This document shows positions 11,045 through 12,536 of a stretch of DNA of 64,000 nucleotides, piece by piece (within the stretch, counting starts at the first letter, position 1; each line of letters begins with the position of its first letter). Source of the stretch: a bacterium. GTDB lineage: Bacteria > Patescibacteriota > Patescibacteriia > 2-12-FULL-60-25. A model generated the notes under the pieces. That model saw nothing but the letters and a program-made list of their open reading frames with translations. It was not told the origin of the DNA and did no database searches. The stretch is from the NCBI GenBank assembly GCA_021796435.1, contig JAJYXM010000016.1, positions 246,625 to 310,624 on the forward strand, in the 5' to 3' direction. The position numbers and the translations under genes are program-made.

Positions 11045-12536
11045 GTTCGAGGATGAGAAACGGTTTGAACCTTCAAGTAAAAAGATGAGGCACCTGGAAA
11101 AATCAGGTCCTTCGTCCGACCGCGCCGCAAAACCTAATCCGGGACCGTTAAATCGGTACCCAAAACGGCGCCGTCAGATGAGGGACCTGGTCAAGTCCAG
11201 ATGGACCTCAAGCCGTTCGGTTACGGATTCAGCGGTGTAAGGCCCCCATAGGCCCTGCTGGATTCGGCGGAGCCTGGCTGCACTGGATGCGCCAGCCATG
11301 CTTCGTGGGTGTGAACCATAAAAAACCGAGGATGGCATCATCAGCGAGCGGCAGGCCACTGCTTGCGATGTTTGCCACCGAACCTGCGGGTGACCGCGGG
11401 AGTCTGCAAGGGCATAGGGCCGAAAGGACCTAAGTCTGCGTAGATAAGTCTTCGTCAGTGCATCCTCTCGTGTCGTGCGAGCTGGGTAACTCCGGTTCGC
11501 ACGCCTTCTCCCGGCCAGAACGTCATACGTCCCGGATGGAAGAGGGGAAAAGCACTTTGGATAATCGATAATCCGGTCCTCACATAGACCTCTGAACATC
11601 GGAAGTCTGTGCGAGGACCGGGTGGTGCACAACCATTTGTCGTCTGCTTCGGGGAGTCTCCCGATCCGTTGGTCCGCCTCACGGTTACACCGTGGGCCGG
11701 CGCGGGTAGGCGAATGCGTAACGGAAACCCCGTATACGCACTGGGGCAATGGTCTCCAGATTGTGTACGGCGCAAGGCTGAATCGACAGCCATGCGTCGT
11801 GGGGCCCAGAGTGGTTCCCGAAGGAGGTGTGCGCACACCTCCAACCTAACAGGACCTCGACTTGAGGCTGAAGGAGGTGTCCGCGGCACCAAGTGTTGAC
11901 CGGCGCTGCTAAATTGCAGGTCAGTCGGTGGCACATCGTTTCTCTCCTGGAGCGCGAGCTCGGTTACTCCGAACTCGCGCATCCTCTCCCGCAGCTGATG
12001 GCGACATCGGAGACGGAAGAGGGCAGGTGAAAAAAGTTTCTGATTACCGCAAGCCGCAAGGATCGAAAGCCGATTTTTACGGGTTGCGGCGATCATCTGA
12101 CGCCAGCCTTAGGCAATGCTCTTGCGGCAACACCGGCCATGGAAGGAAGTCTCGGCAACTAACTTCCATCTAAGGAGAACCTCCGGCGCTGGCCAGCAGC
12201 TACGGAGACAGATGACGCTTAGCCGGTGCGACGGCTAAAGCGGGGTAGCGAAGGTCTCGCTGCTTTCAACTAGGTTCCACGGGCGTTCCTGGCATCCTCC
12301 TGGAGAGGCGCTGCTGAACGAAAAATCCGCTGCGTCCGAACAGCGCAGAGGTAGAGCCCATGGTTTCTGTGCTTGACGACTTCAGGAAACGTCGGCACAT
12401 CAGATCCGATGCGGGGTAAATCCGCAAAGGAAAGGACTTCGGTCCATCGCATATTCTTCTGGAGCGGGCACGTTACTCGACGTCCCGCATCCTCTCTTGC
12501 ATCTGACTTAGGTCGGATACGGAAGAGGAGGAATGC
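11045..12536 (+). ncRNA. Unclassified roughly 1.5-kb GC-rich structured noncoding RNA / long leader with three tandem hairpin-plus-anti-SD units
   Basis: No ORF with a coherent frame or RBS; only Arg/Pro-rich antisense ORFs, which look spurious; dense local hairpins; three homologous units at about 11461-11547, 11933-12023 and 12445-12533 with compensatory stem changes and a conserved UWACUC loop. Confidence 0.45.

Follow-up and report, generated by a model that had tools for sequence, protein, structure and literature searches.

Bacteria have few long structured non-coding RNAs, and a number of those known proved to be unexpected in structure or function. Patescibacteria, the group considered here, have small genomes with little room for non-functional DNA. 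Among the described systems closest to the present locus are the Y RNAs, the small RNAs associated with Ro60. The genes of bacterial Y RNAs share the strand of the Ro60 gene rsr and lie no more than 4 kb away from it; in M. smegmatis a single precursor encoded upstream of rsr gives rise to both YrlA and YrlB by cleavage (PMC4201824). Here we describe a locus in a 64,000-nt stretch of patescibacterial DNA (GenBank assembly GCA_021796435.1, contig JAJYXM010000016.1, positions 246,625 to 310,624 of the forward strand), which as a whole is called the window and is numbered from its first letter. Positions 11045-12536 of the window are non-coding and have a conserved structure; in relatives the corresponding region usually precedes rsr. 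To judge from its sequence, the region is the gene of a long, strongly expressed, structured non-coding RNA. We regard it as on balance probable that this is a long modular RNA, or the precursor of several RNAs, of the Ro60 system, built from modules whose terminal units of ~95 nt would act as repeated binding or processing elements. The family is undescribed and, as far as found, restricted to a clade of Candidatus Uhrbacteria (Patescibacteria, candidate phyla radiation, CPR).

A promoter and a long structured RNA

The locus in the window consists of a promoter and three tandem modules:
11010..11038, + strand: sigma-70-type promoter of the long RNA, with -35 TTGACA, a 17-nt spacer and a TG-extended -10 TAGATT
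11045..12536, + strand: structured non-coding RNA of three tandem modules (no Rfam match, fold z-scores, no conserved open reading frame)
11045-11550, + strand: module W1
11551-12027, + strand: module W2
12028-12533, + strand: module W3

The promoter matches the consensus at 10 of 12 positions and is preceded by an AT-rich tract read from the sequence. Transcription would start at about 11045, and from the promoter to the ATG at 12537 extends ~1.5 kb of G+C-rich sequence, with a G+C content above that of the flanks. In sliding-window folding, many 150-nt windows within 11050-12475 have minimum free energy (MFE) z-scores of -4 to -6; flanking coding DNA mostly scores between -2 and +1. In most windows the fold of the + strand equals or exceeds that of the - strand in stability. 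Self-BLAST and repeat finding recover three homologous stretches with a spacing of 519 and 508 nt. The pattern of the corresponding unit (loop, pyrimidine tract and GGAAGAGG) has three matches, all at the units, with 0.00 expected from 100 shuffles. The long RNA may extend beyond 12536, through the small ORF110 (ORF, open reading frame), to a terminator-like site near 12977.

A first-pass annotation, made from the letters of the sequence, had proposed a near-consensus promoter TTGACA-17-TAGATT with an AT-rich tract, followed by ~1490 nt with dense local hairpins and no credible ORF. All of this stands: the promoter is kept in seven other lineages, the hairpins are reflected in the z-scores, and the ORFs of the region lack a Pfam match, a conserved GTG start at 12027 and any remnant of ORF110. 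Its reading of the region as a large structured RNA gains support from conservation, covariation, non-coding character, the RNA's own conserved promoter and the absence of an Rfam match. It had found no match to glycine, SAM, T-box, RNase P, tmRNA or hammerhead patterns, and the Rfam scan that it suggested returned no known family.

Conservation and synteny with rsr

Related loci were collected from relatives of ORF110, from TrmB homologs of Candidatus Uhrbacteria/Patescibacteria and by a pattern scan of metagenomes. The family is thereby known from about ten contigs of one CPR clade, comprising metagenome-assembled genomes and metagenome contigs (designated by L numbers below). The locus is kept in at least eight related lineages of Candidatus Uhrbacteria/Patescibacteria, and its order is trmB, a small divergent transcription unit with a mini-ORF, a near-invariant promoter, 0.6-3.3 kb of gene-free DNA and, usually, rsr. 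The promoter, with an AT-rich tract ahead of it, is retained as CTTGACAAATATTTCGAnnTGTGnTAGAnT in the window, L021, L028, L031, L033 and L036, and in looser form in L038 and L041. The first gene of this order is found in the window as follows:
9794..10549, + strand: gene of a TrmB-family transcription regulator (Pfam TrmB, E=5e-11)

Homologs of this gene in Candidatus Uhrbacteria/Patescibacteria are 53-71% identical, and in all lineages found trmB is the immediate upstream neighbour of the RNA locus. An archaeal origin of the DNA, which TrmB might suggest, was rejected in view of a bactofilin, a TyrRS with an S4 domain and the patescibacterial names of the homologs. L021, L031, L033/L034, L036 and L041 have trmB, RNA and rsr in this order on the same strand; the rsr products carry a TROVE domain (Pfam, E=4e-32 and 7e-34) as well as vWA_Ro60. 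Usually a homolog of ORF195, a further gene of the window, follows downstream of rsr. The contig of L028 breaks off at a start resembling that of rsr, and in the window and L019 ORF110 occupies the place of rsr. Locus L041 has a different upstream neighbourhood and nonetheless retains the trmB-RNA-rsr order, which argues for a functional cluster. Here the order continues: RNA, unit, rsr, unit, a structured segment of 420 nt, unit, ORF176.

Where the locus contains rsr, the distance from the last unit to the downstream rsr start is about 56-210 nt, and the gene carries a Shine-Dalgarno sequence (SD) of its own. No U-tract terminator was seen between the last unit and rsr. Since the RNA precedes rsr on the same strand with no visible terminator in between, we infer that it belongs to the Ro60 system. 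No Y RNA and no other family was detected by Rfam in the rsr loci of the relatives (L021 at E<=10; L028, L031 and L033 at E<=1), which makes the long RNA the obvious candidate for the Ro60 partner.

We also note, between ORF113 and rsr of L021 (10477-10551), a near-perfect hairpin of ~75 nt with only chance matches to microRNA models. In L033 and L036 a different long hairpin is found at the equivalent place.

The ~95-nt unit

The modules end in units that share one fold. In the window these units and associated elements are:
11458..11550, + strand: unit U1, consisting of hairpin P1, pyrimidine tract, hairpin P2 and GGAAGAGG, at the end of W1 (covariance model R1, 30.3 bits, E=6e-5)
11935..12027, + strand: unit U2, at the end of W2 (R1, 45 bits, E=2.7e-8)
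12443..12533, + strand: unit U3, at the end of W3 (R1, 45.4 bits, E=2.3e-8)
12521-12531, + strand: purine tract GGAAGAGGAGG of U3, inside helix P3; SD of ORF110
12877-12944, + strand: degenerate fourth unit as read from the sequence, with a hairpin (12877-12893), a pyrimidine tract (12894-12906) and AAGAGGGGAAG (12931-12941)
12946-12977, + strand: terminator-like hairpin and U-run after the degenerate fourth unit

The unit is organized in the order hairpin P1, pyrimidine tract, hairpin P2, purine tract. The pyrimidine tract CCUCCUCUCCCG pairs with the invariant purine tract ACGGAAGAGGAG around P2, and the resulting helix P3 is a long bulged hairpin. In the units of the window the distance from the pyrimidine tract to GGAAGAGG is about 24-27 nt. 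P1 carries the loop core ACUC(C/G), conserved across the family, and G-U pairs are common in its stem. Conserved GGA triplets are located in the 3' strand of P3, i.e. in a stem, and none in loops. Window-type units have a second, upstream pyrimidine tract that is a possible alternative partner of the purine tract; the MFE fold of U1 shows such a pairing, but units of the common type do not conserve this second tract.

The model R1 was built from nine units of the common type and detects one to six units per locus, on the strand of the promoter; its matches are much stronger on the + strand, in agreement with the direction of the promoter. In an alignment of 22 unit sequences, which was fitted to R1 and hence leans towards the structure, 94.7% of cells are paired as compared to 81.5% in shuffles, none of which (0 of 500) attains the level of the alignment. 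Pairing drops to 38-50% when the partners are slid by 1-3 columns. Changes on both sides are found in 21 of 29 pairs, and 12 of the 13 pairs of P1 covary. An independent run of RNAalifold on this alignment also gives P1, P2 and P3. The purine tract ACGGAAGAGGAG of P3 is near-invariant, also in units where the pyrimidine tract opposite forms G·G, A·G or C·A mismatches with it, so that its conservation must serve more than base pairing or the hiding of an SD.

The degenerate fourth unit of the window is below the R1 threshold; the equivalent units behind the ORF score 26.6 bits in L021 and 41.9 bits in L025. An outlying match of 33.6 bits on the minus strand of L036 (649-734), ~2.6 kb downstream of the rsr cluster, has no conserved purine tract; it is perhaps a diverged unit, perhaps a false positive.

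The three units had been described in the first-pass annotation as homologous elements of ~85 nt with compensatory stem changes, a pyrimidine tract and a complementary purine tract downstream. Self-BLAST, alignment and pattern search recover all of these features, with borders refined by R1 to 11458-11550, 11935-12027 and 12443-12533 and a tract spacing of 24-27 nt, and the purine tract of the third unit (12521-12531) is indeed the SD of the ORF at 12537. The homolog search in relatives that it had advised, here with a count of covarying pairs, shows the units to be conserved, with 21 of 29 pairs changed on both sides. Two of its statements hold in part. The UWACUC loop is a property of the units of the window and gives way to the core ACUC(C/G) in the family as a whole; and the units are homologous elements as proposed, yet are the 3' ends of modules of ~480-510 nt rather than free-standing.

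Element E and the composition of modules

A second structured element, E, is present in two of the three modules of the window:
11254..11338, + strand: element E, copy 1 (model R2, 62.3 bits, E=1.5e-16)
11752..11834, + strand: element E, copy 2 (R2, 58.2 bits, E=2.9e-15)

Copy 1 reads [GCGGAGC]-nn-[GGCUG]-loop-[CAGCC]-nn-[GCUUCGU], with a small hairpin and an A-rich stretch behind it; in copy 2 a compensatory change converts GGAGC/GCUUC into GGCGC/GCGUC. The form of the family is [GCGGAGC]-[GGCUG]-loop-[CAGCC]-[GCUUCGC] plus the small hairpin. Besides the two copies in the window, R2 identifies further copies in six other loci, and E is positioned ~100-170 nt upstream of many units. Its pairing amounts to 95.4% versus 34-48% when slid; the main helix is 100% paired and has four covarying pairs. 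Module W3 does not contain E and has a hairpin, AGCCGGUGCGACGGCU, in common with a module of L041.

Units form the 3' ends of modules that measure ~480-510 nt in the window and ~400-570 nt in the family; the modules of L031, L033 and L036 are longer and duplicated internally. The modules are reiterated one to six times by tandem duplication, with three in the window. Between the units of the family lie 300-1100 nt of RNA, likewise conserved and structured.

A further motif, GGAUACUUCGAAC(C)AUC, occurs two to four times per RNA in the rsr-linked lineages L021, L028, L031, L033 and L036 (e.g. L021 9295 and 9425). The motif GGAUACUUCGAAC is absent from the window and L038. The UUCGAA within GGAUACUUCGAAC(C)AUC recalls a T-loop; the stem does not fit a T-arm.

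Absence of coding capacity and of known RNA families

The window was searched with Rfam 15 at gathering thresholds, and the RNA region in addition at E<=10. The only matches in the 64 kb are three tRNAs, all outside the RNA region, and at E<=10 the region itself yields only chance-level matches to microRNA and IRES (internal ribosome entry site) models. ARAGORN reports only the three true tRNAs of the window and no tRNA-like domain in the RNA region.

No ORF of either strand within 11045-12536 has a Pfam match, and the GTG at 12027, directly after unit U2, is AAA in L019, a strain that is 98.6% identical. The evidence for selection comes from pairwise comparison of the gene-free regions of L021, L028, L031, L033 and L036. 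These regions are 76-84% identical between relatives, and trmB and rsr are 73-82% identical in the same genome pairs. In the gene-free region mismatches are distributed evenly over the three phases (e.g. 94/106/105) and many indels of 1-2 nt are found; trmB and rsr have strongly phased mismatches (108/48/15 and 169/96/54, respectively) and only indels of 3 nt. Gene-like conservation with no codon periodicity and with indels of 1-2 nt therefore marks the region as non-coding, with selection acting on RNA rather than on protein.

In the window and L021 the upstream 1.5 kb was searched in all six frames, by tblastn and with a profile of the ORF110 family, and no remnant of ORF110 was found. The modules are therefore not decayed copies of this ORF.

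A distant DNA search of a phage collection gave no match, and two scans of viral contigs with unit patterns gave 0 matches. The GTWACTC-loop pattern has 17 single matches in genome contigs of unrelated taxa, none with the fold of the unit; this pattern is tailored too closely to the loop variant of the window. No description of such an RNA was found in literature on Ro60, TROVE, CPR, Patescibacteria or Uhrbacteria in combination with structured RNA.

Genes behind the long RNA

Two protein-coding genes follow the RNA in the window:
12537..12869, + strand: ORF110, a small protein of 110 aa with no Pfam domain
13031..13618, + strand: ORF195, a conserved protein that follows rsr in relatives (no Pfam or PADLOC match)

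An exhaustive HMMER search identifies four relatives of ORF110 (35-46% identity), so that the family has five known members. The purine tract of U3 (12521-12531) ends 5 nt upstream of the ATG at 12537. A purine tract (GGAAGAGGAG) 4-5 nt before an ATG is found only in contexts of the ORF110 family, namely the window, L019, L021 and L025. With the SD located inside P3, U3 probably also limits the translation of ORF110. Units flank the ORF on both sides in L021, L025 and the window. In L021 a cassette with ORF113 sits inside the ancestral last unit, precisely between GGAAGAGGAG and AUUCCGCACGAA, and a duplicate of the 3' half of the unit lies behind the cassette. Given this precise insertion and the flanking units, ORF110 looks like a late insertion that uses the purine tract of a unit as its ribosome-binding site.

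Strain L019 is 98.6% identical to the window over positions 1-12544. Of the ~60 differences in the RNA, ~45 fall in 11190-11340, a patch that covers hairpins and part of E copy 1 and looks like an imported segment. Compensatory changes are found here (CUGG..CCAG to CUGA..UCAG), and the pairing of the GGAUUCAGCGG/CUGCUGGAUUC helix is retained. Downstream, window positions 12545-12985 correspond to L019 18772-19215, where ORF110 and its 3' flank are exchanged for a homolog of 46% identity between otherwise identical flanks. The diverged segment starts directly behind U3; ORF110, the degenerate fourth unit and the terminator-like site all fall within it. The pattern suggests recombinational exchange or strong diversifying selection.

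The homolog of ORF195 in L036 is 65.6% identical (tblastn), and further homologs are present in L031 and L033. ORF195 is retained in the window, where rsr is missing, and its product is a candidate for a partner of either the RNA or Ro60.

The divergent small transcription unit

Between trmB and the promoter of the long RNA lies a further small transcription unit:
10612..10889, - strand: divergent small transcription unit, context rather than part of the long RNA (promoter TTGACA-17-TATATT at 10889-10861, 11 of 12 matches to the consensus)

The unit has a 5' region of ~190 nt and a strong SD, GGAAGGAGG (10688-10680), which precedes a mini-ORF of five codons (10674-10657, - strand; ATG GGA AGC GGA AGC TGA) for the peptide MGSGS. 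The corresponding product is MGSGR in L041 and MGNGR in L038. An intrinsic terminator at ~10650-10612 is shared with trmB. The arrangement is kept in all eight lineages examined and has no match in Rfam.

Alternative explanations

Several explanations other than an RNA of the Ro60 system have to be weighed. Were the region a cis-regulatory leader, each unit would be a riboswitch-like or protein-operated platform that hides an SD, reiterated three times. The first-pass annotation had spoken of such a reiterated expression platform, and in a narrow sense this applies to U3, whose SD is inside P3. The pairing of the purine tract in P3 directly before ORF110-family start codons (window, L019, L021, L025) and the possible alternative pairing offered by the second pyrimidine tract of window-type units (U1 MFE fold) are in line with a leader. 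However, most units, including those of the relatives, have no ORF behind them, and those upstream of rsr or ORF176 lie 38-210 nt from starts that have their own SD. In addition, conservation is lacking for the alternative tract in units of the common type and for the GTG after U2, and Rfam, at gathering as well as permissive E-values, detects no known aptamer, so that we consider a leader unlikely. A related explanation places the function in the interiors of the modules and regards the units as boundary or processing elements, i.e. sites for an RNase or an undescribed self-cleaving motif, that cut up a precursor. The units are located exactly at the ends of modules and flank RNA modules as well as ORFs (L041; L021, L025 and the window); known rsr operons release embedded non-coding RNAs from a precursor (PMC4201824); and the invariant nucleotides next to three helices would suit a core for catalysis or recognition. 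Against this stands the lack of an Rfam match to known self-cleaving ribozymes. As a separate explanation it is improbable, and it overlaps with the Ro60 reading instead of excluding it.

The variable number of modules, between one and six, could also reflect an array of recombination cassettes, with the units acting as sites comparable to attC of integrons at which cassettes of RNA or protein are exchanged. Both the precise insertion of ORF113 between GGAAGAGGAG and AUUCCGCACGAA in L021, with duplication of the 3' half of the unit, and the onset of divergence between the window and L019 right after U3 (12545-12985) would fit such exchange. But the gene lists contain no recombinase at any locus, the units lack RYYYAAC/GTTRRRY core sites, the interiors of the modules are conserved and covarying, and changes in copy number are explained by ordinary homologous recombination between repeated units; a cassette array is therefore very improbable. 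Hardly credible, finally, are decayed gene copies or neutral tandem duplication devoid of RNA function. A tandem repetition with a period of ~500 nt that ends in an ORF of similar size might point in this direction, but protein similarity to ORF110 is absent (tblastn, profile), and conservation at the level of genes with no codon periodicity, covariation and a conserved dedicated promoter speak against it.

The long RNA as a candidate Ro60 partner

The reading as an RNA of the Ro60 system rests on the conserved promoter, the modular non-coding structure and the synteny with rsr. It would involve transcription together with rsr, binding of Ro60, processing and translational control. The long RNA could correspond to bacterial Y RNAs, in giant form or as a precursor, or it could be a scaffold that presents repeated binding sites, and the invariant P3/P2 part of the unit may be the reiterated element for protein binding, processing or both. 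Each copy of the three-helix unit might dock the Ro60 ring or another factor encoded in the trmB-rsr-ORF195 cluster. The more far-reaching version, in which a kilobase-sized modular Ro60-partner RNA replaces the small Y RNAs in these reduced CPR genomes, or in which the unit is an undescribed self-processing motif that releases the modules, is possible but doubtful.

Several observations weigh against an RNA of the Ro60 system. The long RNA is 5-30 times longer than any described Y RNA: Y RNAs measure 80-130 nt and have an end-to-end stem, as opposed to tandem modules of 0.6-3.3 kb in the present family (~1.5 kb in the window). It has no tRNA-like domain with D- and T-arms that ARAGORN or Rfam would detect. 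The motif GNCGAAN0-1G, which in Y RNAs is located near the 5' end and is the proposed Ro60 contact, is found at 11419 and 11709 of the window and scattered in relatives, in linkers and with no conserved position. With size, tRNA-like domain and a positioned GNCGAA motif all missing, the long RNA is not filed as a Y RNA. Furthermore, a tblastn search with Ro60 returned no Ro60 gene in the 64-kb window, and in L038, also a locus without rsr, a canonical terminator directly behind the last unit closes the RNA. The window and L038 indicate that the RNA can exist with no rsr nearby.

Should the Ro60-partner or the self-processing reading be true, the locus would represent an architecture of long bacterial non-coding RNA with no described counterpart, unusually large and modular and absent from Rfam. 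The position ahead of rsr makes it testable what bacterial Ro60 binds and does beyond a few model species, and would test how far the concept of Y RNAs reaches towards kilobase-sized RNAs with multiple sites. The ~95-nt unit lends itself to such work: being short and well defined by covariation, it is ready for studies of binding and structure and for probing.

Comparison with known systems

The arrangement of a promoter, tandem repeats and a small ORF, the latter flanked by repeats and variable between strains, resembles type III toxin-antitoxin systems (ToxI) and attC arrays. However, the period is ~500 nt compared to repeats of ~34-36 nt in ToxI, and no ToxN/AbiQ-like protein was found; as opposed to integrons, the units lack attC core sites and the loci lack an integrase. 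With CsrB/RsmZ of bacteria, and by analogy with NORAD of mammals, the long RNA shares several copies of an element per transcript, in a number that varies by lineage. In CsrA sites, however, GGA is presented in hairpin loops, whereas here it is located in a stem and the conserved loop reads ACUC. Unlike sponge or scaffold RNAs in general, the long RNA has only one to six copies, with 300-1100 nt of conserved structured RNA between them and no known partner protein. Like leaders that sequester an SD, U3 pairs the SD of ORF110 with an upstream pyrimidine tract across a small hairpin. In contrast to these leaders, the element recurs far from start codons, its purine tract is invariant whatever the coding context, and no aptamer is recognised.

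Similarities also exist to the large structured RNAs OLE, GOLLD, ROOL, HEARO and raiA, which are likewise long, have a G+C content above that of their flanks, many covarying helices and a narrow range, and an expression that, for the RNA described here, is apparently also high. The present RNA differs from them by the absence of an Rfam 15 match, by reiterated modules of ~500 nt, each with a conserved terminal unit, instead of a single fold, and by its link to trmB and rsr. The last property leads back to the Y RNAs (YrlA/YrlB; Yrn1/Yrn2 of D. radiodurans), from which the long RNA is set apart by size, by domain composition and by its presence in the window and L038 with no adjacent rsr. As with Y RNAs, the RNA of the relatives shares the strand of rsr at a distance of no more than 4 kb, and co-transcription of the two is probable, in keeping with known systems in which non-coding RNAs are embedded in the rsr transcription unit and cut from a precursor (PMC4201824); another similarity to Y RNAs is that conservation within the unit is strongest in a bulged helix.

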